From NCBI GenBank assembly GCA_029288775.1, contig JARIGQ010000001.1:29044-93043 (forward strand): a stretch of 64,000 nt of DNA, read 5' to 3'. Both the position numbers and the translations under genes were made by a program. Source of the stretch: Candidatus Nomurabacteria bacterium (lineage in GTDB: Bacteria; Patescibacteriota; Minisyncoccia; Phycocordibacterales; UBA5272). Under the pieces are notes generated by a model. It saw nothing but the letters and a program-made list of their open reading frames with translations. It did no database searches and was not told the origin of the DNA. Positions 1,900 through 62,252 of the stretch are shown here, in pieces (positions within the stretch are counted from its first letter, which is position 1; each line of letters starts with the position of its first letter).

Positions 1900-4608
1900 A
1901 TGGATCAGACTCTAAAAACTCCTGAGGAAGAGATTGCTTATTTGCGTTCGCAAATTCAAAACAAAGTGGAAGCATCCAAAGGGTTCGAAGATCGTTTTAC
2001 CTCAGAAGATCATGCTCATGAAGTAGTTCGTGAGTATAAGCAAGTACCCCTTGAAAAAGCAGTTGCTCCGCAGCAGATGGTTACTGCCGGGGAAAAGCAG
2101 CGGCTTTTGGAATGGCTGACACCCAGAGAAACGGATGAACAGGTAAAAATGCTTGCGCAGGTTATGGCAGAAAAGGGCCTTAAAAATGCTTTTAGTATGA
2201 TGGAGTCGCTTAATTATCCGGAAGTTGAGGACGATTTCGAGCGTTACTTGGTGCAATACCTCATTTCTGGTCATGAAGTTAAAAACAATCTTTCCAAGGA
2301 AGAATGGAAGGCGCTCCATATGAAGCTTTTTGAAGTGGTATTACCCGACGTTCAGGATCAAGGAAAGGGAGCCAAGGAAATGATGGCGCTTATGGAGCAA
2401 TGGTATGCCTCTATGCAGGCACTTGCTCCAGAGCCCACCAACAAGGACAAGAATTACTATTCATTGGAACTTGCAGTGGCTAATGGTACAACCACGGCGG
2501 TTTTTTATTGTGCGGTACATATTGACTATGCTTCGCTTTTTGAAAAAGTGGTGCTTGGTATTTTCCCAACCGCTCAAGTTCGCGAGCAAAAGGAGGATTA
2601 TAATATTTTTACCAAGCACGCTATTACTACGTGTGCGTACGCCTCCGCAAGCACGCATCCAACACTCCCACTTAAAACCTATACCAACATGGAGGGGGAT
2701 CCGATGTCGCTTATTATTGCTTCTTTCACTAAGATAGCGCGGGAAAATGAAGGCCTTGCGCTCCAGCTTCTTATTCGTCCTTCGGGGGATATGTTTGCTA
2801 AGAGGTATGGAGAAATGTTGGAGGATTTGCGAAAAGGGGAGACGCTCAAGCGGGTTATTGAAAAGCAGGATAACTTGAAAGAGTCATTCCGTATTCTCGG
2901 ATCAATGTTTAGTAGTAAATCTGCTGAACAATTAGCTAAAGAAAAAGAGAAGAAACAAACGTTTGTGGACGAAACAGCAATGAAGCATGTACAGGACAAA
3001 CTTTCACGTACTATTGTAGAAACCAATATTCGTATTATTGCTTCGGCAGAAACATTACCTCGTGCACAAGCTATTCGTTCGGAACTTGAGGCTTCATTTG
3101 CCCAATTTGCAGAAGTAAATGGAAACAGCGTTAAATGGGTAGAAGTAGAAGGGCGTAAGCAGAAAGCCATGCTTCACCGTTATTCGTATCGCTTGTGGAA
3201 TGATGATGAAAGTTATCCGCTTAATATAGCCGAGCTTGCATCGCTATTTCATTTTCCAACCCAAACCAAAGATACGGCAAATGTACGCGAACAAACGGCG
3301 ACTCAAGCAGCTGCTCCATTGGACATGCCTTCAGAAGGGGTGGTATTGGGAGTAAATAGATTCCGCGGTCAAGAAACTATGATTCACATGTCGCGAGAGG
3401 ATCGGATGCGTCATTTGTATGTGATAGGGCAGACAGGTACAGGTAAGACCTCCATTTTGAAGAATCTTATTATTCAGGATATTAAAAATGGTGATGGGTG
3501 CTGTTTCATTGATCCGCACGGGTCCGATATTATGGATATTTTGGCGTCCATTCCTCCGGAGCGCTCGCAAGATGTTATATATTTTGATCCAGGGAATACC
3601 GCTCGTCCCATGGGTCTTAATATGCTCGAATATGATCGGAATTATCCTGAACAGAAAACATTCGTTGTAAATGAGCTTTTGGGTATTTTCAATAAGCTCT
3701 TCGATATGAAGACATCCGGAGGTCCAGGGTTTGAACAGTACTTTAGAAACGCAACTATGCTCGTTATGGAGCATCCGGAGTCGGGGAATACGCTTCTTGA
3801 AATTGCTCGTATCTTTTCTGATAAGGACTTTAGAGATTATAAGCTTTCGAAGACCAAGAATCCGCTCCTGCTTCAATTTTGGCAAAATGCGGAAAAGACT
3901 ACAGGAGAACAGGGGCTTCAGAACTGGACCCAGTATGTTAATTCCAAATTCGATGTCTTTCTTTCAAATGACATTATGCGTCCGATTATTGCCCAGGAGA
4001 AGAGTGCGTTTAATATCCGTGACATTATGGATGGACGCAAGATTTTCCTTGTGAATCTTTCCAAAGGACGCCTAGGAGACATCAATGCTTCACTTATCGG
4101 TCTTATTTTGGTCGGTAAGTTCTTACAAGCCGCCCTTTCTCGCGTGGACACCACGGAACGCCCTGATTTCTATCTGTATATCGACGAATTTCAAAACATT
4201 ACCACGCCATCCATTTCAGCTATTCTCTCTGAAGCACGCAAGTATCGTCTTAGTCTTAACTTGGCTCATCAATTCATCGCTCAGCTTCCTGAAGACACCA
4301 AGGGAGCGGTATTTGGCAACGTTGGTTCAATGGCATTCTTTCGTGTCGGACCTGATGATGCTCAATACTTGGAGCCGCAGCTTTCACCAACATTTACTGC
4401 AAGTGACCTTATGAAAATCCAGAATTATCATGCCTATCTTAAAGTACTGGTGAATGGTGAACCGAAAAAGCCATTTGACATTGTAACGCTTCCACCAGAA
4501 AAGGGTGATGCAACACGTATCGAGCCGCTTAAGGAATTAAGCTATCTTACCTATGGTCGACCAAAAGAAGAAGTAGAAGCTGAGATTTTGAAGAAGTATC
4601 AACTTTAA
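1900..4608 (+). CDS. TraD/VirD4 (type IV coupling protein)-like P-loop ATPase with a large uncharacterised N-terminal domain; no TM anchor
   Basis: Walker A GQTGTGKTS, DPHG, Walker B YLYIDEFQN, and an ARKYRLSLNLAHQF TraG-D_C-like motif in the C-terminal half. The N-terminal ~450 aa are soluble and unrecognised. Confidence 0.8.
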   Translation: MDQTLKTPEEEIAYLRSQIQNKVEASKGFEDRFTSEDHAHEVVREYKQVPLEKAVAPQQMVTAGEKQRLLEWLTPRETDEQVKMLAQVMAEKGLKNAFSMMESLNYPEVEDDFERYLVQYLISGHEVKNNLSKEEWKALHMKLFEVVLPDVQDQGKGAKEMMALMEQWYASMQALAPEPTNKDKNYYSLELAVANGTTTAVFYCAVHIDYASLFEKVVLGIFPTAQVREQKEDYNIFTKHAITTCAYASASTHPTLPLKTYTNMEGDPMSLIIASFTKIARENEGLALQLLIRPSGDMFAKRYGEMLEDLRKGETLKRVIEKQDNLKESFRILGSMFSSKSAEQLAKEKEKKQTFVDETAMKHVQDKLSRTIVETNIRIIASAETLPRAQAIRSELEASFAQFAEVNGNSVKWVEVEGRKQKAMLHRYSYRLWNDDESYPLNIAELASLFHFPTQTKDTANVREQTATQAAAPLDMPSEGVVLGVNRFRGQETMIHMSREDRMRHLYVIGQTGTGKTSILKNLIIQDIKNGDGCCFIDPHGSDIMDILASIPPERSQDVIYFDPGNTARPMGLNMLEYDRNYPEQKTFVVNELLGIFNKLFDMKTSGGPGFEQYFRNATMLVMEHPESGNTLLEIARIFSDKDFRDYKLSKTKNPLLLQFWQNAEKTTGEQGLQNWTQYVNSKFDVFLSNDIMRPIIAQEKSAFNIRDIMDGRKIFLVNLSKGRLGDINASLIGLILVGKFLQAALSRVDTTERPDFYLYIDEFQNITTPSISAILSEARKYRLSLNLAHQFIAQLPEDTKGAVFGNVGSMAFFRVGPDDAQYLEPQLSPTFTASDLMKIQNYHAYLKVLVNGEPKKPFDIVTLPPEKGDATRIEPLKELSYLTYGRPKEEVEAEILKKYQL

Positions 4609-19960: not shown

Positions 19961-19989
19961 TTGACTTCAAAAGGTTCTTCTGATAAGAT
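19961..19989 (+). promoter_or_regulatory. rRNA operon promoter (TTGACT-17-TAAGAT)
   Basis: -35 TTGACT at 19961-19966, 17-nt spacer, -10 TAAGAT at 19984-19989, about 330 nt upstream of 23S. Confidence 0.55.
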
Positions 19990-20630
19990 TATGAGCACTG
20001 TTAATGATGAAGAACACGAAAATTACTAGCTAAAAACCGCAGGCAAGTGACGTTTCGTTACGCGCCCGCCGGTAAGGCGGATTTTCTTTTCTAAAAATTG
20101 TTACAGGGGAGGTTCGTTGACAATAGAATCCCGTGCACAACACGCGCAACAATACTGTTATCCAGTAGTAGTAATATTCACTGGGGTCTAGCGGAGTTTG
20201 TAGTACGGGGAACATGAAAGATAATCAATGCACAAGTAGCTTGTAAACCTGCTTGTGCAGCACGCACATAACAATGGAGCGGTCCGGAGTTATGTGGTAG
20301 TTATGTTTCCTAATAGGAACATAAGAGCATACGGTGGATGCCTAGGCTCTAACAAGCGATGAAAGACGTGATCAGGCGGCGATACGCTTCGGGGAGGTGC
20401 CTAATAACCTTCGATCCGGAGATTTCTGAATGGGGAAACCTCATACGAGTAATGTTGTATGGTCTTAGAGAGCATTCTCAAGACGCGCACCCAGGGAAGT
20501 GAAACATCTCAGTACCTGGAGGAAAAGAAAACAAAAGTTATTCTGCAAGTAGCGGCGAGCGAAAACAGAGAAGCCCAAACCAGCACACCACTTTGCTTTC
20601 AATTGATATCGTTCATGTATGTTTATAAGG

Positions 20631-20987
20631 GGAAAAAAGTTCTTTGCCCGCCTACCAAGGCGTGCACATATCCGATTCATCGGATATGGCGGGTCTCAAT
20701 TAGGGAAGCAGCCATGAGGTGAGCCTCTGTGAGACCGAATGAGATACCAGAGGTTGACGTACGCTTGTTGGTGACGTTGACCGGAGCGCCCGAAAGCGCA
20801 AGCTAACGGGAACAACGCACACGAAATCTCTCGTGTGCGTTGACAATGCCGTAAGGCTTCAAGGTGCTGACAAAAATGCCTTACGGAAGCTGGCCAGGCT
20901 GTGAACGATCGCATCGGCTTGGTTGGAAGGTGAGAGGCCGCAGGAACCCCCGCTCTTTAAAGTTTTGCCGATTATAAATCGGCTCTC
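20631..20987 (+). other. Structured insertion of about 357 nt in 23S domain I, closed by a roughly 50-bp imperfect inverted repeat (20581-20630 with 20988-21048); IVS-like
   Basis: Flanks CAGCACACCACTTTGC...ATGTATGTTTATAAGG and CCTTATAAACATACAT...GCAAAGTGGTGTGCTGG are reverse complements. No counterpart in E. coli 23S helices 9-10. Confidence 0.6.
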
Positions 20988-21251
20988 CTTATAAACATAC
21001 ATGAACGAATACGATATCAATTGAATTGAAGGCAAAGTGGTGTGCTGGGGTAGTAAGACAGAAACGTAGATTTCTAGAAGAGTTACAAAAGGTAAATATA
21101 GACTAAGTTGTTGGAAAGCAACGCCACAGAAAGTGATAGCCTTGTAGTCGAAATATTTATCTCTCTTTTGTTTCTGATCTTGAGTAGTTCGAGACACGAA
21201 TAGCTCGGATGAATCAGCCGGAACTAACCGGTAAGGCTAAATATTGTTAGA

Positions 21252-21297
<46 letters not shown>

Positions 21298-22772
21298 GGA
21301 AGGGGAGTGAAATAGAACTGAAACCGTATGTTTACAAAGAGTAGAAGAGGTATTTATACCTCGACTGCGTGCCTATTGAAGAATGAGCCAACGAGTTGTA
21401 GGTTACTGCAGGCTAAGTGGTATAAAGTCACGGAGCCATAGCGAAAGCAAGTGTTAATAGCGCGAACCAATTGTAGTAGCTTACAGACCCGAAGCCGGAT
21501 GAGCTTACCATGAGCAGGGTGAAGCAGTGCGAAAGCACTGTGGAGGCCCGAACCAGTAGGTTGTACGACTCCTTTGGATGACTTGTGGTAAGGAGTGAAA
21601 AGCTAATCGAATTCGGTAATAGCTGGTTCTCTCCGAAATAGTTTTTGGACTAGCGTCATGTGTTCCCTTTGGGGGTAGAGCACTGGAAGGTTTTGACTAG
21701 TAGAAATACGGCAACACCTATCAAACTCCGAATACCAAAGGTTAAAAACATGGCAGTAAGACCACGGGGGCGAAGCTCCGTCGGTCAAAAGGGAAACAGC
21801 CCAGATCTCAAGTTAAGGTCCCTAAGTATAGATTAAGTGTATAGCGAGGAGGTGGAGTTTCATTGACAATGAGGATGTTGGCTTAGAAGCAGCCATCATT
21901 GAAAGAAAGCGTAACAGCTCACCCATCGAGAGACTCTGCGCCGTAAATGATCGGGACTAAAATCTATCACCGAAACTGAGGGCTTCCTATTTATAGGGAG
22001 CGGTAGGAGAGTGTTCCACTCTGCGCTGAAGCGGAAGGGGTAACCCACCGTGGAGCGTGTGGAAGTACGAATGTTGGCACAAGTAACCGCAAGGAAGGTG
22101 AGATCCCTTCCCGCCGAAAGAATAAGGTTTCCTTTGCAATGATTGTCAGCGAAGGGTTAGTCGGGCCTAAGGAGATGGCAAACGCCGGATCCGATGGACA
22201 TAAGGTTAATATTCCTTAACTTGGTAGTAATGTGATGGGATGACGGGGTGTAGTATGTAAAGCGTCTTATTGGATTGACGTTTATTGTGTAAGTGGCTTG
22301 TGTAGGGAAATCCGCACGAGTATACCGCAAGCACCGTATGAAGGTGAGGGGCAACCCGAGCCAATTTTACAAAGCACGCCTCCGAGAAAAGTCTCTACAT
22401 TCTGTGAATACAGAACGTCTTCTTGTGCCTTTTACTAGGTACGAGCTTGCTTGTATCTAGATCATCTAGGTACAAGAAGATGCTTAAGTTACTATTAATC
22501 CGTACCGCAAACCGACACAGGTATTCGAGTCGAGTAGACTAAGGCGAACGAGTGATATCTCCCTAAGGAACTAGGCAAAAAAGCGATCGTAAGTTAGCGA
22601 TAAGATCTGCCCATAGCAATATGGGCCGCAGCGAAAGTTTCCCTAGCGACTGTTTACCAAAAACACAGCTTCCTGCGAACACGTAAGTGGATGTATAGGA
22701 GGTGACGCCTGACCAATGCGGGAAGGTCAAATATCGGCGGTGCTTCGGTGCTGGATGATATAAGCCCCCGTC

Positions 22773-22804
<32 letters not shown>

Positions 22805-23018
22805 TCTGATCATATCTATGATGTGGTCAGAACGGACTAGGACGGTTATAGGGAATTTGGTTTAAATAAAGTAAAAACAGTCTAATTGTGTACGCTTCAT
22901 AAAGCTACCTGTTGCATCGAAATATGCATTCAGTCCAATGTGATTAACGAGAGACCAACGTCACACATCTGACCATTAGGTTGAAGATGAAGATAGAGTC
23001 CAACTTGAGGAATAGTTG
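22805..23018 (+). other. Group-I-type intron in 23S at the E. coli U1917 site (214 nt)
   Basis: Interrupts the universal GGUCCUAAGGU|AGCGAAAUUCC. 5' exon ends in U and the insert ends in G. P7-like R/S elements GGACUAG and AAGAUAGAGUCC. P9 hairpin CAACU-tgaggaau-AGUUG before the terminal G. P1/IGS pairing was not found. Confidence 0.55.
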
Positions 23019-23588
23019 AGCGAAATTCCTTGTCTGGTAAGTTCAGACGTGCACGAATGGCGTAACGACTGGGGAACTGTCTCAGGGAGTAGCTCGGTGA
23101 AAATACAGTGGGGGTGAAGATGCCCCCTAGCTGCAGATAGACGAAAAGACCCCGTGAGCTTTACTCTAGCTTGGTATTGCAAGTGTTCAATTACTGCGTA
23201 GTGTAGTGGTGAGAGGTTGAAGGTATGATTTCGGTTGTACTGGACTCGTCGATGAAACAGCCATCTGTAATTGGGCACTTGCTAACGTGAACGGAAAAAA
23301 CGTTCGCAGACAGTATCTGGTGGGGAGTTTAACTGGGGCGGTTTCCTCCCAAAAGGTAACGGAGGAGTATATTAAGGTCATCTAGGCGCGAATGGAAACC
23401 GTGCCGATAGCGCAAGGGCATAAGATGGCTTGACTGTGAGACGGGCATGTCGAGCAGACGCGAAAGCGGGTCCTAGTGAACCTACTCTTGGCTTTAGACG
23501 CCGGAGCAGATTAACGGATAGAAGCTACCACGGGGATAACAGGCTAGTTGTGCCTAAGAGTTCATATCGACGGCACAGTTCGGCACCT

Positions 23589-23942
23589 TAACTTTAATCG
23601 GGGTGCGTCAGGAGCAATCCTGTAGCAACACATGTACAATCGTCAAATAAATAATATGTACACAAGAAATCTTGGCTTATAACGGTGAAACCCTTATGCA
23701 TGAACACCATAAGGGCAATACCGTGGGAAGTTTATATGTAAGAAAGCGATCACTCCAATTGTATTGGAGAGCTGCACACCTCAAAATGTGATTACATGTA
23801 TAACCTCGTAGAGACTTGTCACGCATGTGACGGAGTTGTGGTTCAAAGAAGATAAACCATAGCTAATACGCCAACGCCGCCTTTGATCGGGCGGATGAAG
23901 ATATAGTCCGATCCTTCCAGTAATGGAAGACAAATACGACAG
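23589..23942 (+). other. Group I intron in the 23S peptidyl-transferase region near E. coli 2500 (354 nt)
   Basis: Interrupts GGCACCU|CGAUGUCGG. IGS GGGUGC (23601-23606) pairs with exon GCACCU, with U.G at the splice site. S element AAGAUAUAGUCC is an exact consensus match. R-like AGAGACUUG. P9 hairpin CUUCCA-guaa-UGGAAG. Terminal G. Confidence 0.7.
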
Positions 23943-24088
23943 CGATGTCGGCTCATCTTATCCTGGTGGTGGAGAAGCTACCAAGGGTTTGGCTGTTCGC
24001 CAATTAAAAAGATACGTGAGCTGGGTTCAAACCGTCGTGAGACAGGTTGGTTTCCTATCTTCTGCAGCCGTTCGAATATTGAGAAGAT

Positions 24089-24119
<31 letters not shown>

Positions 24120-24474
24120 TGACCTCTGGTGTGTGGGCTCTAGCGCCAGCTGGACCGCCCAGTAGCTATGTCGGGAATGGATAACCTCTGAAAGCATCTA
24201 AGAGGGAAGCCAACTTCAAGATAAGTATTCGTTGAGGGTCGTAAGAGATGATTACGTTGATAGGATCTAAGTGTACGCACAGTAATGTGTTTAGCTGAGG
24301 ATTACTAATTACCCGAATCCTATTAGGAAACATGATTATCACAAATAATCATCGTGCATCTTTCATGTGGTGAGAGGAGGTTGAAGAGTCTGATACCAGC
24401 AATGGTCGCTTACAATTTGGCTTCCTCTCACCACGTGAAGATTTGGTTCTTTCATGTTGTGAACGATATATGAT

Positions 24475-24650
24475 GGGGATGTAGCTCAGTTGGTAGAGCG
24501 TTTCCCTGGGGGTTGGGTGTCAACGCCCGACTTGTCTCCCAGCTAGTTGCCGAGTACAAAAGGCTTAGGCAAAAGGACTGCCGCCGACGAGGTGGAGGAA
24601 GGGGGAGAGCAGGGGGAAGGTCGCAGGTTCAAATCCTGCCATCTCCACCA
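24475..24650 (+). tRNA. tRNA-like gene (probable tRNA-Pro, anticodon GGG) interrupted by a roughly 100-nt insert in the anticodon loop; CCA encoded
   Basis: Acceptor GGGGATG pairs with CATCTCC. Canonical D-arm GCTC-AGTTGGTA-GAGC. T-arm GCAGG-TTCAAAT-CCTGC. Anticodon stem TTTCC pairs with GGGAA only across about 101 nt (about 24512-24612). Confidence 0.45.
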
Positions 24651-24682
24651 TCTCATATATCGACGAAACGTTTGAGTTTTTT

Positions 24683-24794
24683 GTTCTGGTGGTTTAACCT
24701 AAGGGTCACACCTCTTCCCATTTCGAACAGAGAAGTTAAGCCTTAACGTGGCGATGATACTGACATTGTCGGGAAAGTAGCTGCCGCCAGAACA
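24683..24794 (+). rRNA. rrf: 5S rRNA
   Basis: Helix I GTTCTGGTGG pairs with CCGCCAGAAC. Internal CCATTTCGAACAGAGAAGTTAAGCC and GTGGCGATGATACTG match 5S conserved blocks. Confidence 0.8.
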
Positions 24795-24810
24795 AAGGAC
24801 TCAAAACAAC

Positions 24811-24846
24811 AAAAACGCGAAGCGAAAGCTTCGTGTTTTTGTTTGC
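24811..24846 (+). terminator. rRNA operon terminator
   Basis: ACGCGAAGC-gaaa-GCTTCGTGT hairpin followed by TTTTTGTTTG. Confidence 0.7.
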
Positions 24847-24859
24847 TATACTGGAAGAT

Positions 24860-25633
24860 ATGGAGTCCACGTGGTCAGCACGACGCAAACTTATATACGG
24901 CTTAGGGGTGCTTATTGTTATTATTCTTATAGCAGTTTTTTCGCTCCGTAACGTTCTCTTTCCCACCCCTACCTGCTTTGATGGTAAGCAAAATGGATAT
25001 GAAGCAGGAGTGGATTGCGGAGGATCCTGCAGTCTTAGGTGCTCTTCCCAAATTATTCCACTTTCTGTTTCTTGGGCTCGAGCCATTCGCACTTCTTCAA
25101 CGACATATGATTTAGCTGGTCTTATAGGTAATAGGAATGTGGATAGTTCAACGCAAGCTATTACGTACACCTTCTCGATATACGGCCCGGATGGCACGCT
25201 TATGGCACAAATGAATGGCATGACACCGGTTCCGGTAGATGGTGATTTTCCTGTAGTGGTAAACAAGGTATTCCTTCCGGCTCCTCCTTCTTCGGTAAGT
25301 CTCACAGTTCCCGGCAATGCTCTGTTTTATCACGTTACGGAAAGTGCTACCAATCCTACTCTTCGGGTGACATCTACTCGATTTGAAGAAGGGGCTATTC
25401 CTCGAGTCTATGCCACCATTGTAAATACCAAGCGTTTGCGCCTTAAGAATGTTCCGGTGCGTGCCGTGCTGTATGATGAGCAAGGAAACGCTTTTGCCGT
25501 GGGGCAAACGATTATCGACTCTCTCGATAAAGAAGGTGTTGCAAATGTTGTGTTTACGTGGAATACTGCTTTCTCTTTTCCTCCGACAAAAATTCGCATT
25601 TACCCAATCTTGGATCCGTTTGTAGTCTCTTAG
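24860..25633 (+). CDS. Hypothetical membrane-anchored protein with a CxDGxxNxxExxxDCGGxC motif
   Basis: N-terminal TM helix. Cys-rich motif CFDGKQNGYEAGVDCGGSC. The start was set at 24860 because the track start lies inside the terminator. Confidence 0.55.
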   Translation: MESTWSARRKLIYGLGVLIVIILIAVFSLRNVLFPTPTCFDGKQNGYEAGVDCGGSCSLRCSSQIIPLSVSWARAIRTSSTTYDLAGLIGNRNVDSSTQAITYTFSIYGPDGTLMAQMNGMTPVPVDGDFPVVVNKVFLPAPPSSVSLTVPGNALFYHVTESATNPTLRVTSTRFEEGAIPRVYATIVNTKRLRLKNVPVRAVLYDEQGNAFAVGQTIIDSLDKEGVANVVFTWNTAFSFPPTKIRIYPILDPFVVS

Positions 25634-39842: not shown

Positions 39843-42185
39843 ATGAAATTTTCATTGAATTGGCTTCAAGAGTACAGTAAAGAACCACTTCCAAATGTGG
39901 ATAGTCTTTCGGAAATGATAACGCTTAATGCCTTCGAGATTGAAGGTATGGAAAAGCTTGCTCAGGATATGGTGCTTGATATTAAAGTATTGCCTAATCG
40001 TGCTCATGACGCTCTCGGACATCGAGGTATGGCGCGTGATATATGTGCTTTGGTAGGGAATACTTTTCACGATACTCAGGAATATTATGAAGGGGAAGGG
40101 GATACTTCTTTAGGTGAACCAAAGGTCATTGCAGCTTCTGAAGAATGTACTCGTTTTATGAGTGTACGTATTGAAGGAATAAAAGTAGAAGAATCACCGG
40201 TATGGCTTAAGGAGAAATTAAACGCCATTGGTCAGAAGAGTATTAATTCAATTGTTGATATCACCAATTTTGTTCAGTTTGCTATTAACAAGCCAATGCA
40301 TGCCTATGACGCAAGTTTGATTGCAGGTAATGCGCTCTATGCAAGGAAAGCAAAAGATGGTGAGAAGCTTATCACGCTTGATGATAAAGAACTTAGTTTG
40401 GATAGCGGTACTTTGGTAATTGCTGATGAAGAAAAGGCATTAGGGCTTGCCGGTATAAAAGGAGGCAAGTTTTCGGGGATTACCTCCGAGACGACGTCTG
40501 TGCTTTTGGAATCAGCGAATTTCAACTCCACCCTTATTAGAAAGACTTCGCAAAAGTATGGTATTCGCACGGATGCTTCCAAGCGTTTTGAAAATGAACT
40601 GGCAGATGAGTTGGTAGAAGACGGGCTCCGTCTAACAATTGCCCTTATCAAGAAACTTAACCCTGAAGCTCGCGTGAGTGCTATTGTAGACCATTGGACG
40701 CATCAAAGTTGGCCCTACGTTGTCTCTGTGTCTGTAGAGGAAATCAACAAGCATCTCGGCACTTCCTACGAAGAAAGTGACATTAAAAAAGTTTTTGAAC
40801 ATTTAGGATTTGGCGTGCGAAGTGCGACAACTCGCGAAATTATTGAAGAACAAGTAAAGAAAACAGAAGGAGCTCTCTACCAAAATCCTTCCAGCATGAG
40901 AACTGATGCGCCACATCTTTTTTCCTGTTCTTCGCTTATAAGTTTTCTTTTTGCTGGAGTATGGCAACCAAGTCTCTCTATTGATAAATATGTGTATGCT
41001 TCTCCTCTTAATAAGATTGATGCAAAGTGGGGGGATTTGGTATTTTCCAACACAGGGGAGGGAAAGATCCGCTATGAATCAGTGCAGTTTTTGCCTGGCA
41101 CTACCGTGGAGCAAGGTGTTGACCATGTGGGATTATATTTAGGGGACAACAAAGTGCTTCACATTTCCCATAACACAAATAAGGTTGTCACCCAAACCTT
41201 TGATGAAGCCGCAGACTTCACTGATAAACTTTTGTTTGCGCGACTTGTAGATGTTGAAGCTCCAAGATTATTTGTGAACGTTCCTCCAGAACGTCTGGAT
41301 ATTCGCATCAAGGAAGATCTTATTGAGGAAGTAGCTCGTATGAAAGGATTGTCTTCTATTCCTTCAGTGCTTCCGAATATTGCTCGCACGGGTATTCCTC
41401 ATAAGCGTTTATATTATGAGACCAAAATAAAAAATATTCTTTCTAAGGGGGGCTTTTCGGAAATCATGACGTACTCCTTTGGGGATGAAGGTGAGGTAGA
41501 AATCATGAAAGGCTCTGCTATGGACAAAGAAAAACTTCGCACCAAGCTTGCGCCTGGCCTCTGGAAGGCATTTCAGATGAATATGCTTAATGCGCCGCTT
41601 CTTCAGATTGATACGGTGAAGATGTACGAATTCGGAAACATCTTCACTCCTACTAATGAGCGTCGTCATTTTGCACTTATCATCGATGACGGTAAAAAGA
41701 AATCATCTTTTTCTGAAGAGGTTGATCTTGTGCTTTCTGAAATTAAACGCGAGCTTGGCGTGTCCCAGCTTGAATGCCAAACAGCAAGCACCAAGCCATA
41801 CTGTGTCGAGCTTGATTTTGATACACTGATCGAATCACTTCCTGAGCCTACGACGTATGAACCGCTTGCACAAGATCTATCACCTATTGCTTACAAACCA
41901 GTCTCTCCTTATCCGTTTATTGTTCGTGATATTGCTGTATGGGTACCTGCTTCTATCACATGGGAAACTATCCGTACTCTCGCTTTACAAATCAGTTCTC
42001 CTCTTATTGCTCGCTTGTATTGTTTTGATACCTTCGAAAAAGAGATAGAGGGGGTTCGGAAAACATCCTTTGCTTTCCGTTTTGTACTCCAATCGCATGA
42101 GCGCACGCTTACGGATGCTGAGGCCAATGAAGTGGCGGATAAGATGTACGCACTCCTTAAGGAAAAAGGGTATGAGATTCGCTAA
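39843..42185 (+). CDS. pheT: Phenylalanine--tRNA ligase beta subunit with an NlpC/P60-like domain inserted in the B5 domain
   Basis: B3/4 domain (LDIKVLPNRAHDALGHRGMARDI). B5 domain (EEINKHLG...EHLGFGV ... VNVPPERLDIRIKEDLIEEVAR) split by about 140 aa carrying SCSS, GDLVF and HVGLYLGDNKVLH (Cys/His/His, 12 residues between the two His). Confidence 0.85.
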   Translation: MKFSLNWLQEYSKEPLPNVDSLSEMITLNAFEIEGMEKLAQDMVLDIKVLPNRAHDALGHRGMARDICALVGNTFHDTQEYYEGEGDTSLGEPKVIAASEECTRFMSVRIEGIKVEESPVWLKEKLNAIGQKSINSIVDITNFVQFAINKPMHAYDASLIAGNALYARKAKDGEKLITLDDKELSLDSGTLVIADEEKALGLAGIKGGKFSGITSETTSVLLESANFNSTLIRKTSQKYGIRTDASKRFENELADELVEDGLRLTIALIKKLNPEARVSAIVDHWTHQSWPYVVSVSVEEINKHLGTSYEESDIKKVFEHLGFGVRSATTREIIEEQVKKTEGALYQNPSSMRTDAPHLFSCSSLISFLFAGVWQPSLSIDKYVYASPLNKIDAKWGDLVFSNTGEGKIRYESVQFLPGTTVEQGVDHVGLYLGDNKVLHISHNTNKVVTQTFDEAADFTDKLLFARLVDVEAPRLFVNVPPERLDIRIKEDLIEEVARMKGLSSIPSVLPNIARTGIPHKRLYYETKIKNILSKGGFSEIMTYSFGDEGEVEIMKGSAMDKEKLRTKLAPGLWKAFQMNMLNAPLLQIDTVKMYEFGNIFTPTNERRHFALIIDDGKKKSSFSEEVDLVLSEIKRELGVSQLECQTASTKPYCVELDFDTLIESLPEPTTYEPLAQDLSPIAYKPVSPYPFIVRDIAVWVPASITWETIRTLALQISSPLIARLYCFDTFEKEIEGVRKTSFAFRFVLQSHERTLTDAEANEVADKMYALLKEKGYEIR

Positions 42186-42186
42186 G

Positions 42187-42678
42187 ATGAAACTCGTCGT
42201 TCCCTATTATTCACAATTCGTAGATATTCAGGATCCTTTTTGGATGTTACGTGCTTGCGGAGCGGTATGTCTTAAGATGGTTGCGGAATTTCAGGGAAAA
42301 GAAGTTCCCGATTTAATAATTCTATGCAATGAGGCAAAAGAGCGCGGAGGATACGATATGGTAAATGGATGGGTACATGATTATTTGGTATCTAAAGCTG
42401 AAGAGTTGGGATTGAAAGCATATCGCAAGGAAGGTCTCGATACTCTTGATGAAGTTAAAGCCTTTTTAGAAAAAGGACCGGTAATTGTTTCTGTGGAGAA
42501 ACGTGTGCTTGAGCAAAAGCGCTTTCACATGATTGTGATAACGGGTATTGAAGACGATATGGTTATCTACCACGAACCGGAATCAACTGATAAAGGGAGA
42601 GGGATGAACCGCGTGTGCACTGTGCAAGCATTTATGGACTATTGGCGCGGCAAAGCTATTTTTATCGACTCACCTTAG
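42187..42678 (+). CDS. Papain-like cysteine peptidase, C39-like (Peptidase_C39_2/BtrH-like)
   Basis: VVPYYSQ...ACGAVCLKMV Cys motif and downstream His (FHMIVITG). Its ATG lies 1 nt after the pheT stop (TAAGATG). Confidence 0.6.
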   Translation: MKLVVPYYSQFVDIQDPFWMLRACGAVCLKMVAEFQGKEVPDLIILCNEAKERGGYDMVNGWVHDYLVSKAEELGLKAYRKEGLDTLDEVKAFLEKGPVIVSVEKRVLEQKRFHMIVITGIEDDMVIYHEPESTDKGRGMNRVCTVQAFMDYWRGKAIFIDSP

Positions 42679-43424
42679 AATTGTTCTAGATGCGCTTTCC
42701 AGAGATCATGACGATCATCTATGTGTCTCTCATTGTCACTGCGGCATAGAGATTTCAGTAAAGGTGTATCTTTTATCCATTCCTTGCCATTCCAAAATTC
42801 CAGTGGTTCGACATTTGTTTTATAGAGGGCTTTTTCCGCATAGCAGGTACCGAAATAAAAATAGTGTTTGCCATTTTTTGAAAGTTCTCGTATATGATCC
42901 AGTGCAAGCCACATACCCATGGAAGATTTCGCGTATTCGTGAGCGTAAAAGGAAAACCAGTAATGACTCATGACTTCATCCTCTACCAGTAAAAGGTAAG
43001 CGACAGGTATTCCATCCTTAGCGTATTCGACAATTGAATTGATAAGGTTCATCGAGAGAATAAGTTCGAGACGTTCGCGTGGCATGACGCTTCCGTGAGC
43101 AAGGTTGAAGTATGAAAGGCAGAGGTTGAAGAATGTCTCATCGTGTAGAATATCTTCTACAGTACGAAGCTTTTTTTCAAACATGCCATCAAACATGCGT
43201 AAGACCCGACGGTTTTCACTTGTAGGCTCCCATTTCCTAATATCTGCTCGGGTTCCTCGCGCCATATAAAAAATATCTCGTATTCCTTTGGATCCAGAGT
43301 AGGGAAGAAAACCTCGCTCATAGATTTCATGAAGTTTGTCTCCGTGTTCGCGCTTAAGGTACAACGTATAGGCGAAGGAATACGTTTCGTATGAGTGGCC
43401 AAATTCAGAAGCAAATAACTGCAT
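42675..43424 (-). CDS. Arginyl/leucyl-tRNA--protein transferase-like (ATE/Bpt family) protein
   Basis: C-terminal HYFYFGTCYAEKALYK resembles the ATE_C YK motif. Family-level call only. Confidence 0.45.
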   Translation of the reverse strand: MQLFASEFGHSYETYSFAYTLYLKREHGDKLHEIYERGFLPYSGSKGIRDIFYMARGTRADIRKWEPTSENRRVLRMFDGMFEKKLRTVEDILHDETFFNLCLSYFNLAHGSVMPRERLELILSMNLINSIVEYAKDGIPVAYLLLVEDEVMSHYWFSFYAHEYAKSSMGMWLALDHIRELSKNGKHYFYFGTCYAEKALYKTNVEPLEFWNGKEWIKDTPLLKSLCRSDNERHIDDRHDLWKAHLEQF

Positions 43425-43427
43425 AGA

Positions 43428-44840
43428 TTAAGCGGGAAATTTTTCTTCCAGTGCTGAAATGGTTTCTGGAATGAATCCTCCCATACCTCCTGAACTTAAA
43501 ATAAGAATAACGTCATTATCTTGTGTGTAATTAACAAGATCTATTAATCCAGTAGCAGCATGTTCAAACGGGGTTACTTCGATACCAGAGGCACGCACGC
43601 GCTCTACAATTTCTTCAAGATTTAACTGCTCATGAGTTCCGCTTCCGTGCTCAGGGGGTTTATACATAAACACATGCTCTGCTCCCTTAAATACGGTATC
43701 GTACCAATGAAGTGCTGCACGGTTGCGCCAAGAAAATGTATGAGGTTCAAACACAACAACAAGCCGTCTACTTGGAAAATGAAGTTCCATTGCTTCGATT
43801 GCAGAACGTGCCTTATCAACGGATGATCCAAATCCTTCATAGACGGGAATGGAAGTTTTTTCACTCTTCTTATCCAGTCGACGCACAATTCCTTTGAAGG
43901 TCTGTATACCTTTTGCAAGCTCTTCCGGAGTGAGTTTTTGTGTTTCTAATAGAAGAGCCGCAACTCCAATAATATTTTGTATATTGTGCTTACCTAGAAG
44001 AGTGGTAGAAAGGCGGACAATAACTTCATCATTTTTTACTAAATCAAAGGTTGATTCTCGGCCAAAAGTAATGTTTGCTGCGTGATAGGTTCCTTGTTCC
44101 AGTCCGTACGAAATACTATCGTGAGTTATTTCTCCTAGTTTAGAGTGTACAGTCATATCATCCGTACAGAGGATAAGTTTTCCCTCTTGGGGGAGACCTT
44201 GAATAAGCTTCATGAAAGGGAAAAGATAGTCCTCGTGGGTTGGAAAGACATTTACATGATCATGAGCAAGCGCAGTGACAAGGAGATGTCTTGGATGGAG
44301 GAACATAAACTTAGAAGTAGTGTCCCAATTAGAAGAAGGATATTCGTCGCCTTCCATGATGAAATCATTTCCATTGCCTAGACGCGCATTGGTGGTAGGT
44401 GTAAGGGGAATTGCACCAATGAAATAACTTGGATCTTTCCCGGCTTGCTCGAGACACCAGGAAAGAAGTGATGTGCAGGTAGATTTGCCAAATGATCCAA
44501 CTACCACAGTATTTTCTTTGTGTTCCGAAAGGTGTTCAAGTACTTGTGGAAAAGAAAGGACTGGTTTTCCTGATTCTAAAGCAGCTTTTACTTCTTCATT
44601 TTCTTCAGGAATAAGTTTTGCATGTTTGCCGATGACGATATAGTCCACATCATCTGGAATATTATTTGGAGAAAACGGAGTAGTGCACGGGATTTTATGT
44701 TCCACTAAATAATCAGAAATAGGAGGGTAGAAGCCTTCATCGCTTCCTGTTACGGTTTCTCCTTTGTCGACAAGTAACTTGGCAACCGCGCTCATGCCGG
44801 CGCCGGAGACGCCGATAAAGTGATATTTCATACTTTTCAT
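43428..44840 (-). CDS. Mur ligase family protein (MurC/Mpl-type UDP-N-acetylmuramate ligase)
   Basis: N-terminal FIGVSGAGMS and a central GSFGKSTCTS P-loop. The start codon is ambiguous (44831, 44840 or 44843). Confidence 0.8.
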   Translation of the reverse strand: MKSMKYHFIGVSGAGMSAVAKLLVDKGETVTGSDEGFYPPISDYLVEHKIPCTTPFSPNNIPDDVDYIVIGKHAKLIPEENEEVKAALESGKPVLSFPQVLEHLSEHKENTVVVGSFGKSTCTSLLSWCLEQAGKDPSYFIGAIPLTPTTNARLGNGNDFIMEGDEYPSSNWDTTSKFMFLHPRHLLVTALAHDHVNVFPTHEDYLFPFMKLIQGLPQEGKLILCTDDMTVHSKLGEITHDSISYGLEQGTYHAANITFGRESTFDLVKNDEVIVRLSTTLLGKHNIQNIIGVAALLLETQKLTPEELAKGIQTFKGIVRRLDKKSEKTSIPVYEGFGSSVDKARSAIEAMELHFPSRRLVVVFEPHTFSWRNRAALHWYDTVFKGAEHVFMYKPPEHGSGTHEQLNLEEIVERVRASGIEVTPFEHAATGLIDLVNYTQDNDVILILSSGGMGGFIPETISALEEKFPA

Positions 44841-44904
44841 CATAGCAAAAATGGACAAGAAAAAAAGCAGCGCTTGCGCGCTGCCCAAAGCACCTTTCCC
44901 GCCC

Positions 44905-45774
44905 TTAATCGTTTACGACTACCGCCACGAGATTTCTCCGCTGTACTTCTCCGGCAACCAGTTGCCGCTTATTGGAGTACCAGACAGGTTCACCGTCCTT
45001 CATCTCGCTGTAGGTGCACATCGAGTCAAGGATAATGTTTTGTTCGGGTACACCGAAGCTTGTGAATTGTCGCCGGATGAGCTCTTTAGTGTCGAGCCAC
45101 CCAAGTGTGCGACCGTGACCGTCATCCTTGAAGCATTCCCGTCCCCAGGTTTCGGAGACATAGGTGACGAGACGGGAGTTATGAGGGTTCTCTTTGTCGA
45201 ACATCGAATGCTGGAAGTGCGGTCCAGGTGAGATGGAAAACCCAACCCACACACGCACATCTTTGAGATTCTGACCTTCGAATGCACACCGGCAGATGCT
45301 GTCGACGACGCTTTGGTAGCGTCGAGGAGCTTTTCCCCGTACCCGAGCCATGTCGATGATGCTGTTGCGTCCAGCGTGGGCAGCGACGATGATGTCTCCG
45401 CACTTGGCCACGACGAGTGCGCAGTCTGCTGCCGACATGGCATAGCCGCACGAAGCATCGAGATTAGTCACGCCGTCTGCGTCTGTACCGCGGTAGATGC
45501 GGAATTCTGCGCCCGGGCTGAAACTCATACACGGGATTTCTCCCGGCCATACAATCTCGGCATTCATCTTCGATGGGGATGGTGCAGCGAAAGCTTCCAA
45601 CTCTTCGCTAGCAATGGAAGCCAAAGCTTCGAAGATCGGAGTATGCGTTTTGTGTTGCTCCTTGCTTTCGTCGAAGCCACGAAAGGAGAAATCGCAACCA
45701 TGCTCACGCCCAAAAGCATGCACCGTGATTTCGCCTCCTAAAATCGGGAGCGAAAGTGTAGGTTCGATGGACAT
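44905..45774 (-). CDS. PgeF/YfiH (DUF152, laccase-domain) peptidoglycan-editing-factor-like protein
   Basis: ADCALVVAKCGDIIVAAHAGRNS matches the HAGWRG region. The start was set at MSIEPTL, which has an AGGAAG Shine-Dalgarno. Confidence 0.65.
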   Translation of the reverse strand: MSIEPTLSLPILGGEITVHAFGREHGCDFSFRGFDESKEQHKTHTPIFEALASIASEELEAFAAPSPSKMNAEIVWPGEIPCMSFSPGAEFRIYRGTDADGVTNLDASCGYAMSAADCALVVAKCGDIIVAAHAGRNSIIDMARVRGKAPRRYQSVVDSICRCAFEGQNLKDVRVWVGFSISPGPHFQHSMFDKENPHNSRLVTYVSETWGRECFKDDGHGRTLGWLDTKELIRRQFTSFGVPEQNIILDSMCTYSEMKDGEPVWYSNKRQLVAGEVQRRNLVAVVVND

Positions 45775-45920
45775 TACTGTCTTCCTAAAAGTTGAGTGTA
45801 CCTCTTTCGGATTGAAAGGGCTTCTACTACCAACACTACAATAGTAAAATAAGCTTGTCAATTAAGGCTTTTTGGAGCGCTTTTGCACTGGTATTTAGGG
45901 GGTAAAAATGGTATAATTAA

Positions 45921-61954: not shown

Positions 61955-62252
61955 TATATGTCTTTGTCTGTAAGCCGAATTCTGTTTTTGTGTAGACATG
62001 TATCTTGTCCCGCCATTGCTGTCGAGATCTAGCGACACTCCTTAGTATTGCTAATAAGGCACGGTCTTGCACACGCGTATGTATTTAGCCGTTTCAGCCG
62101 GACTGAACCGGATCGTTTCTGTTCGCAACACGGTGGTCACCCACGACGGGCGTTACCCGCTACGTTTCCACAGTGAAGTGGTGTGTGTTCGGACTTTCCT
62201 CACCGTTTCCGGCGCGTCTACCCAACAAAGAACTTTTTTAGTATACCATATA

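Follow-up and report, generated by a model that had tools for sequence, protein, structure and literature searches.

Introns in bacterial transfer RNA (tRNA) genes are currently held to be self-splicing group I introns, rarely group II introns. Interrupted bacterial tRNA genes and tRNAs in the spacers of ribosomal RNA (rRNA) operons are both known already. A survey of 333 group I introns from the tRNA genes of bacteria gave lengths of 184-894 nucleotides (nt) (PMC13011429), and the Patescibacteria are unusually rich in tRNA introns, including introns at position 35/36 (PMC13011429). A tRNA-like structure upstream of 5S rRNA is attributed to the archaeon Haloferax volcanii, where, according to two papers citing that work, it is used by tRNase Z for maturation of the 5S 5' end (PMC5627344, PMC7714728). 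Here we analyze an interrupted tRNA gene at positions 24475-24650 of a 64,000-nt stretch of DNA (the window) from Candidatus Nomurabacteria bacterium (GenBank assembly GCA_029288775.1, contig JARIGQ010000001.1, positions 29,044 to 93,043 of the forward strand), where it lies between the 23S and 5S rRNA genes.

The element is a predicted tRNA-Ala(GGC)-type gene, interrupted at 34/35 or 35/36 of the anticodon loop (CUGG/CAG) by a 100-nt insert. The interpretation that we favor, at a probability of about 0.5, is that this spacer tRNA gene has lost decoding through an orphan structured insertion and would still be excised as a tRNA-like RNA. Searches of the literature for small non-group-I tRNA introns in bacteria of the candidate phyla radiation (CPR), or for tRNAs in 23S-5S spacers, returned no description of such an element; what appears new is the combination of an insert of 100 nt belonging to neither group I nor group II, a bacterial tRNA-Ala host and a 23S-5S spacer, which was not found described in the literature searched.

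The tRNA body and its amino acid

The Rfam tRNA model (RF00005) matched 24475-24647 with 52.0 bits against a gathering score of 29 (E = 2.9e-8 for the 64-kb window), and the alignment ran from model position 1 to 71 of 71 and passed over 104 nt of the anticodon loop. The acceptor stem GGGGAUG/CAUCUCC is followed by A73 at 24647 and an encoded CCA at 24648-24650, the D-arm is GCUC-AGUUGGUA-GAGC, the T-arm is GCAGG-UUCAAAU-CCUGC, and the 5' strand of the anticodon stem, UUUCC at 24501-24505, has its partner about 100 nt downstream. The conserved positions, as read from the sequence, are all present (U8, A14, G18G19, G15:C48, U54U55C56, A58 and G53:C61). With a full cloverleaf, the conserved D-loop and T-loop nucleotides and a score above gathering, the element classifies as a tRNA. 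The tRNA-Ala-type exon pattern GGGGNNNTAGCTCANNNGGNAGAGCN{110,140}GGTTCNANNCCNNNNNNCTCCA, which allows a gap of 110-140 nt, matched the window once and none of 100 shuffled versions; together with the RF00005 match, this indicated that the interrupted tRNA is real and well beyond chance. The gene is laid out as follows.

24475-24509, plus strand: tRNA 5' part (GGGGAUG, D-arm, UUUCC, then C32, U33, G34 and G35), from the Rfam tRNA alignment
24510-24609 (or 24509-24608), plus strand: 100-nt insert, with a predicted fold and no Rfam family match at E<=10
24610-24650, plus strand: tRNA 3' part (C36, A37 and G38, GGGGA, AGGUC, T-arm, CAUCUCC, A73 and CCA), from the Rfam alignment and loop statistics

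ARAGORN called no tRNA at 24475-24650 in its default mode, and with its intron option (-i) reported a tRNA-Pro(GGG) with a 101-nt intron at 37/38. The original prediction, a gene of tRNA type in the 23S-5S spacer with about 100 nt interrupting its anticodon loop, is supported by the Rfam match and the ARAGORN -i call, and the D-arm, T-arm, discriminator A and encoded CCA read as it described them. The acceptor stem that it called perfect is not Watson-Crick throughout, as pair 3:70 is G.U. For the 3' strand of the anticodon stem, GGGGA (24613-24617), which gives a standard 5-nt variable loop (AGGUC), is a better placement than the GGGAA (24614-24618) first proposed, which leaves 4 nt. The idea of a permuted tRNA falls away, as both halves stand in normal order. 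A decaying tRNA gene, another alternative of the original prediction, may still apply.

The acceptor end carries G1:C72, G3:U70 and A73, and the variable loop is AGGUC. The G3:U70 wobble is the major recognition element of alanyl-tRNA synthetase (AlaRS), and with G1:C72 and A73 it makes up the AlaRS identity set; by G3:U70 with A73, the window element groups with tRNA-Ala. As a comparison set, we used 131 distinct uninterrupted tRNAs with the GGGG...CUCCA acceptor signature, taken from the fetched loci. All 131 had an alanine anticodon (CGC in 48, GGC in 45 and UGC in 38), 75 of them had the variable loop AGGUC, and the loop CUGGCAG occurred in 18 of the 45 natural tRNA-Ala(GGC) genes. When the eight 100-nt removals that leave a 7-nt loop were enumerated, removal of 24509-24608 or 24510-24609 gave CUGGCAG with the anticodon GGC (Ala), the 33/34 boundary gave CUAGCAG with the anticodon AGC, and GGG (Pro) arose only with boundaries 3' of position 36. 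An NGC anticodon in a 7-nt loop exists only after a 100-nt removal.

The best full-length database matches of the spliced sequence were all tRNA-Ala, and included those of Vibrio phage D69 (with an identical acceptor stem and the anticodon UGC), a 735-kb uncultured huge phage (anticodon GGC, 84% identical and also with the loop CUGGCAG) and a Bifidobacterium plasmid (anticodon CGC). The annotated tRNA-Pro resembling the exons, tRNA-Pro(UGG) of an Agathobaculum phage, has the acceptor stem CGGGAUA...UAUCCCG, with C1:G72 and G3-C70. By the marks taken for a bacterial tRNA-Pro, namely C1:G72 and a Watson-Crick 3:70 pair, as in this phage gene, with no alanine identity pair, the window element does not classify as one, since it has G1:C72 and G3.U70. 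The alanine signature, the uniformly alanine anticodons of the signature tRNAs, the CUGGCAG loop and the alanine-only best matches argue against the proline identity in the original prediction; likewise, its intron position of 37/38 gives way to 34/35 or 35/36, either of which restores a natural tRNA-Ala(GGC) loop. These two positions are indistinguishable because the junction G is ambiguous.

A tRNA-Pro(GGG) with an archaeal-type bulge-helix-bulge intron at 37/38 is exactly what ARAGORN -i called, and G37 would fit tRNA-Pro. Against it, G3:U70 with G1:C72 and A73 never occurred with a proline anticodon in the 131 natural genes, exon-like tRNA-Pro genes have C1:G72 and G3-C70, a 4-nt variable loop would be required, and the central 4-bp helix at 37/38 forms only two of its four pairs. 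ARAGORN boundary calls in bacterial intron-containing tRNAs are, moreover, documented as unreliable (PMC13011429; bioRxiv 10.1101/2020.01.27.920355). We regard the proline interpretation as hardly credible. Intron-aware tRNA finders thus give the wrong amino acid at this locus (Pro for Ala) because an intron at 37/38 is assumed.

The insert and the known intron classes

In the predicted fold, the cloverleaf is retained with its anticodon stem lengthened by 3 base pairs (bp), and the insert forms a 10-bp hairpin (24510-24533) followed by a 6-bp stem (24535-24540/24603-24608) enclosing two hairpins. Relative to shuffled sequences, the stability of the tRNA with its insert was not striking (z = -1.88), and it reached z = -3.17 with the flanks included.

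When 24300-24900 was scanned permissively with all 4227 Rfam families (E<=10), no group I, group II or self-cleaving ribozyme family was returned for the insert. The Intron_gpI model, by which a group I catalytic core (P3-P9) would be recognized, gave no match in this region, while the same model gave intron-like matches in the 23S gene at 23579-23930 (43.7 bits) and 22804-23015 (19.7 bits), neither of which reaches the gathering score of 50. The insert also fell short of the group I length range, since its 100 nt are about half of the minimum of roughly 180 nt in bacterial tRNAs. The original prediction that the insert is not a group I intron was borne out by the absent Intron_gpI match and by the length of 100 nt versus 184-894 nt (PMC13011429). 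As to the junctions, with the 35/36 boundary the insert is preceded by G and ends in G, and with the 33/34 boundary it is preceded by U and again ends in G but the anticodon is then AGC; with either Ala(GGC) boundary, the base ahead of the 5' junction is G, not the U usual for group I.

The other classes fared no better. The group II models (Domain V/VI and D1-D4) had no match at E<=10. In a systematic search for a bulge-helix-bulge motif, defined by two 3-nt bulges on either side of a 4-bp helix and by flanking helices, none fitted a 7-nt loop while keeping the anticodon stem; a complete 4-bp helix arose only where the UUUCCCU run paired with G-runs of the insert, which destroys the anticodon stem and leaves the outer intron helix lacking. 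The bulge-helix-bulge alternative raised by the original prediction is therefore not supported, with no compatible motif and two of four central pairs at 37/38. No RNA ligase, splicing endonuclease or RtcB was found among about 45 open reading frames (ORFs) of the window screened against Pfam, all from the 64 kb of the genome covered. The element does not classify as a transfer-messenger RNA (tmRNA) either: ARAGORN in tmRNA mode (-m) reported nothing, the Rfam tRNA model won the clan competition, and the short stop-ended frames were unconvincing. Nor does the insert match an RNase III-type intervening sequence, which has a long, near-perfect terminal helix at its base: the helix here consists of the 5-bp anticodon stem and 3 further bp and leads into a three-way junction, in contrast to the stem of about 55 bp in the 23S insertion at 20586-21046. 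None of the known intron classes accommodates the insert.

A group I intron that has lost most of its core, leaving an unspliceable pseudogene, would agree with the group I introns in this 23S gene, with their frequency in Patescibacteria tRNAs (PMC13011429), and with the U and G that flank the insert at the 33/34 boundary. Even so, not a single local Intron_gpI match appeared at E<=10, the insert has no similarity to the window's 23S introns, and AGC is abnormal for bacterial tRNA-Ala. Furthermore, the purine-rich stretch able to pair with the 5' exon stands at the 3' end of the insert rather than at the 5' end, where an internal guide sequence belongs. We consider such a remnant improbable.

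Searches for copies of the insert were also negative. BLAST and nhmmer found none in the window or in 153 fetched loci (L001 to L153), an exact search of viral contigs with two insert fragments found none, and phage and plasmid collections gave matches to the exons only and none to the insert. With this type of exon pattern, no relative of the window element appeared among the at least 120 loci listed from metagenome contigs or among 19 loci from viral contigs. A database search with a spurious 77-residue ORF running across the insert found nothing matching the insert-encoded part. The absence of homologues is weakly established. The pattern matches examined proved to be a tRNA with a partial duplicate or a tandem pair, with a single exception, L139. 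In L006, L007, L008 and most of L010-L148, tRNA-Ala genes have a duplicated 3' or 5' fragment of their own within about 60-90 nt; this tRNA-Ala-plus-fragment pattern, seen in diverse bacteria and in viral contigs, is the mark of elements that integrate into tRNA genes.

L139 (2395-2557 of the tRNA-rich viral contig IMGVR_UViG_3300048042_000010) is an interrupted tRNA-Ala(UGC), and its 87-nt insert of three hairpins follows U34 and ends in G. Its best Rfam match was tmRNA (27.9 bits, E = 4e-8), short of the gathering score of 47. We take it as the one real analogue found. Kinship between the two inserts was dismissed, as their similarity did not exceed that of shuffled controls, and a '...VQ[KR]A-stop' frame common to both is best taken as coincidence.

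The strongest competing explanation is a genuine small intron of a new kind, removed precisely by ribozyme activity of the insert or by an endonuclease and ligase, so that a functional tRNA-Ala(GGC) would be made in step with rRNA. Several observations speak for it. The tRNA body is intact, exact removal gives a natural tRNA-Ala(GGC) loop, the predicted fold brings both junctions to one three-way junction beside the 3-bp-extended anticodon stem, and the last base of the insert is G if the boundary is placed at 35/36. Introns are numerous in the tRNAs and rRNAs of Patescibacteria, 35/36 being a favored site (PMC13011429), group I-type introns are present in this 23S gene, and small tRNA inserts that are likewise unexplained occur in megaphages (PMC6784885) and in L139. 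An abundant, chargeable tRNA that cannot decode would, in addition, carry a cost. Against these stand the lack of any known catalytic core, a length of about half that of the smallest known group I tRNA intron, the G rather than U ahead of the 5' junction in the GGC reading, and the missing bulge-helix-bulge motif. The searches found no insert homologue and hence gave no covariation support, a sister tRNA in the same spacer slot (L152, described below) has a defective loop, and the fold of the tRNA with its insert reached a z of only -1.88. On balance, we judge a precisely removed intron possible but clearly short of even odds. Slightly more doubtful is the further proposal that the insert is the first of a new class of small bacterial tRNA introns, neither group I, group II nor bulge-helix-bulge, with a mechanism perhaps akin to that of the megaphage inserts; if true, it may point to an unrecognized splicing route in bacteria with minimal genomes.

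The spacer slot and its rRNA operon

The 23S gene is the upstream neighbor of the tRNA-like element in a common transcription unit, and the tRNA-Ala(GGC)-type gene is predicted to be co-transcribed with 23S and 5S rRNA. The unit and the other features of the window that bear on it are the following.

19961-19989, plus strand: promoter-like site ahead of 23S, TTGACT-17-TAAGAT with an upstream TG
20311-24327, plus strand: 23S rRNA gene, 4017 nt with insertions (Rfam LSU_rRNA_bacteria, 2209.6 bits)
24359-24373 and 24448-24462, plus strand: direct repeat TCTTTCATGTGGTGA / TCTTTCATGTTGTGA, which brackets the spacer hairpin
24362-24439, plus strand: conserved spacer hairpin with 17-nt arms, from a repeat search
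24464-24473, plus strand: 5' arm of the leader-trailer helix, CGATATATGA, 10 nt, 100% complementary to 24653-24662
24653-24662, plus strand: 3' arm of the leader-trailer helix, TCATATATCG, from a repeat search
about 24670-24683 with 24793-24806: 5S leader-trailer stem, read from the sequence
24685-24792, plus strand: 5S rRNA gene, 108 nt, short Parcubacteria type (Rfam 5S_rRNA, 73.6 bits)
about 24815-24843: terminator-like hairpin with T-run after 5S, read from the sequence, the hairpin being listed on the minus strand
61955-62233, minus strand: ribonuclease P (RNase P) RNA gene (Rfam RNaseP_bact_a, 103.4 bits; gathering score, 100)

The leader-trailer helix clamps the tRNA and is present in the minimum-energy fold of 24455-24670. 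RodA is encoded just downstream of the operon, and its named relatives are in 'Candidatus Paceibacterota' and 'Nomurabacteria' bins; the short length class of 5S rRNA is known in Parcubacteria (PMC9297842). Judged from such sequence markers, the host is a member of the Patescibacteria, of Paceibacteria/Parcubacteria type.

The slot between 23S and 5S is filled differently in relatives. L001 (RodA 88% and 23S 93% identical) has a 157-nt spacer without a tRNA, L003 (RodA 82% identical) has a 77-nt spacer without a tRNA, and the more distant L153 has a partial 5S duplicate in the slot and no tRNA. The placement of a tRNA between 23S and 5S, which had been described as atypical, is indeed so relative to L001, L003 and L153. 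For closer relatives, reached by synteny through RodA, the contigs retrieved stop within the 5S gene. Two further slots would be empty, judging from peptides P0135 and P0136. In L153, a degenerate partial 5S copy (cacacctcc...cccatttcgaacagagaagttaaag) lies at 245-350, directly upstream of the real 5S gene; an earlier peptide-based reading of this slot as a tRNA 3' end was dropped, as the DNA shows the partial 5S duplicate.

The one other occupied slot was found in L152, which was reached through the protein search with the spurious ORF and has a 5S gene 97% identical to that of the window. Its spacer has the same layout as the window's, with the hairpin, the CTTTCATGTG repeat, the leader-trailer helix, a tRNA and the 5S stem. 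The leader-trailer helices, TTGATATATG/CATATATCAA in L152 versus CGATATATGA/TCATATATCG in the window, have an ATATAT core in common and differ in their outer pairs; the L152 tRNA sits within the homologous GATATATG/CATATATC helix, and a leader-trailer helix of 19 nt takes in its encoded CCA. This tRNA (3243-3318) is uninterrupted and of different sequence, matching the window exons at 45 of 76 bases. ARAGORN called it Asp(GUC), and its 3' half is tRNA-Asp-like. It has A1:U72, G3.U70 and G73, and its anticodon loop, AGGUCUU, has G33 and U37 and so lacks the near-universal U33 and the purine at 37. Its stems are intact at 21 of 21 pairs; relative to the window exons, both bases differ at nine of these pairs, with pairing lost at none. 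The two slot tRNAs have G3:U70 in common while differing at four other acceptor pairs. By these comparisons, both known occupants of the slot have flawless predicted acceptor, D- and T-arms, with anticodon loops that are unusable or interrupted. Because the L152 loop is defective and L001, L003 and L153 have no tRNA there, the slot tRNA seems not to be kept for decoding.

The rRNA operon around the slot carries further insertions. An insertion of about 460 nt in domain I of the 23S gene (20586-21046) is found in the window and not in L001 or L003; its near-perfect terminal stem of about 55 bp (z = -12.5) resembles an intervening sequence excised by RNase III, and it contains no Rfam family and no Pfam-recognizable ORF. 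Conversely, a 148-nt 23S insertion is present in L001 and L003 only, the window being without it. The spacer hairpin (17-20 bp) occurs with the 10-15 nt direct repeat CTTTCATGTG in the window (24359-24462), L001 (6882-6980) and L152 (3135-3231), whereas L003 has a single CTTTCATGTG and no hairpin, so that the hairpin has the look of an insertion that duplicated its target site. In L152, one arm pair of this hairpin is changed on both sides (GAGAGG/CCTCTC to GCGAGG/CCTCGC), and the L152 spacer has an extra stretch of about 60 nt. The rRNA operon is thus a putative hot spot of lineage-specific structured insertions. The group I-like match at 23579-23930 has a counterpart in L152 (2288-2640, 39.2 bits).

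Operon linkage was also recorded. The 23S-5S unit has its own promoter-like site, and neither the window nor L001 has a 16S gene or a tRNA upstream of the unit. In L003, a tRNA 3' part with a GAU (Ile) anticodon loop, read by eye at 1-53, lies about 150 nt upstream of 23S. Operon linkage therefore varies among close relatives.

An assembly artefact, in which a chimeric join put foreign sequence inside the tRNA gene, deserves mention, as the contig is of metagenome type and relatives' assemblies break at rRNA operons (L002, L009 and L149-L151). Yet a mis-join would not leave the tRNA halves collinear, in phase and 100 nt apart around a self-contained folded insert, and the flanking helix and 5S stem are intact and homologous to those of L152. 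We give this explanation very little credence.

The favored interpretation, a spacer tRNA disabled for decoding, would run as follows. The insert would be another of the lineage-specific structured insertions of this clade's rRNA operon, placed at the one tolerant site of the cloverleaf and left unspliced. As nothing in the acceptor stem or in the D- and T-arms is disrupted, RNase P (with the RNA encoded at 61955-62233) and 3' trimming should still recognize the acceptor, T-arm and elbow and release a tRNA-like RNA of about 176 nt with an enlarged anticodon arm, and this excision would help to part pre-23S from pre-5S. A precedent is the tRNA-like structure that tRNase Z is reported to use upstream of 5S in Haloferax volcanii (as cited in PMC5627344 and PMC7714728). 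AlaRS requires only the G3:U70 acceptor helix, so the 176-nt RNA could still be alanylated, but it would be unable to read codons. The disabled tRNA might persist by serving as a module for processing or structure, or simply owing to a recent disruption. The RNase P RNA itself, at 279 nt versus the 367 positions of the type A model, barely passed its gathering score, which indicates that it is of a reduced form.

A number of observations weigh against this interpretation. All stems and conserved tertiary positions are intact with no sign of decay, which fits a working gene equally well, and the insert is exactly at a real tRNA-intron position. An abundant, chargeable, non-decoding tRNA at rRNA levels should be costly to the cell. 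Since relatives lack a slot tRNA, it is not needed for rRNA processing, and the only other occupied slot, that of L152, holds a tRNA as different from the window's as an unrelated tRNA species. If the gene is indeed disabled, it would show how lineage-specific insertions in Patescibacteria rRNA operons turn a tRNA into a tRNA-shaped processing element.

Alternatively, the element might serve as a non-ribosomal alanine carrier, whose bulky anticodon arm bars it from the ribosome and which, once charged by AlaRS, is used by an aminoacyl-tRNA-dependent transferase (e.g., in cell-wall peptide synthesis) or in a tmRNA-like manner. The retention of G3:U70 in both slot tRNAs despite four other differing acceptor pairs would agree with this, as would the tmRNA score of the analogous L139 gene and a weakly aminoacyl-tRNA-protein-transferase-like GNAT gene beside a murC-like ligase (42675-44888). 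That gene, however, is 18 kb away and far below family cut-offs, ARAGORN tmRNA mode was negative, no convincing tag reading frame was seen, and the full D-arm and anticodon stem do not resemble tmRNA. The discriminator of the L152 tRNA is G73, not A73, and with only two slot tRNAs the shared G.U pair may be inherited or coincidental. A carrier role is accordingly rated as remote as a group I remnant.

The GNAT-fold protein has 249 amino acids and is encoded on the minus strand; it matched ATE_C (9.8e-7) and Acetyltransf_6 (1.8e-8) and lay far below the NCBIfam arginyltransferase cut-offs. Its gene directly adjoins those of the murC-like ligase and a PF02578 protein (Cu-oxidase_4; multi-copper polyphenol oxidoreductase laccase), the whole group lying at 42675-44888 and 44905-45861 on the minus strand, and this neighborhood may represent a tRNA-dependent peptidoglycan step. 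The phenylalanyl-tRNA synthetase beta chain at 39843-42185 (plus strand) has a weak NlpC/P60-like match (2.8e-6) between B3_4 and B5, of which no single stretch passes alone.

Comparison with described systems

The group I introns known from tRNA genes of Patescibacteria (Nakagawa et al. 2026, PMC13011429; tFind survey, bioRxiv 10.1101/2020.01.27.920355) come from the same phylum, are inserted in the anticodon loop with the 35/36 site enriched, at or next to which the window insert lies, and occur in genes that are likewise missed or mis-called by standard tRNA finders. They differ in length (184-894 nt, against 100 nt here), in having a group I core where the insert gives no core match, in the G that precedes the 5' junction of the window insert, and in host, as those described are in tRNAs for Asn, Asp, Thr, Met, Phe and Tyr and the window host is Ala(GGC). 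Archaeal and eukaryal bulge-helix-bulge introns, removed by EndA and RtcB, are similar in size (tens to about 100 nt), in their anticodon-loop site and in an anticodon stem extended by the insert. The window gene, in contrast, has no hBHBh' motif, is not interrupted at 37/38 in the supported reading, and belongs to a bacterium.

The intervening sequences of bacterial and CPR rRNA genes, including the 460-nt example in the same operon, are also lineage-specific, structured, non-coding insertions in a loop of a stable RNA. Here the host is a tRNA, and the base helix is short (8 bp plus the junction) and no obvious RNase III substrate. The element in Haloferax volcanii (Holzle et al. 2008, as cited in PMC5627344 and PMC7714728) is, by those citing accounts, likewise tRNA-shaped and non-decoding, located between 23S and 5S, and able to recruit tRNA-processing enzymes. 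It is archaeal and, as the same accounts describe it, abuts the 5S 5' end, whereas in the window, in a bacterium, 34 nt and a separate 5S stem lie between the two; compared with the Haloferax element as described there, the window element has a full cloverleaf with an encoded CCA.

The 'enigmatic' tRNA introns of megaphages (Devoto et al. 2019, PMC6784885) and the L139 insert are also small, structured, non-group-I inserts in the anticodon loop, with no known removal mechanism. L139 shares a tRNA-Ala host with the window element, although its insert is without sequence similarity to the window's, and these genes are phage genes whereas the window element is in a chromosomal rRNA spacer. Finally, tmRNA also joins an alanine-accepting body (G3:U70, T-arm, ACCA) to a large structured RNA that replaces the anticodon loop, and the window element differs from it in its full D-arm and anticodon stem, its length of only 176 nt, its lack of pseudoknots and its lack of a credible tag frame.

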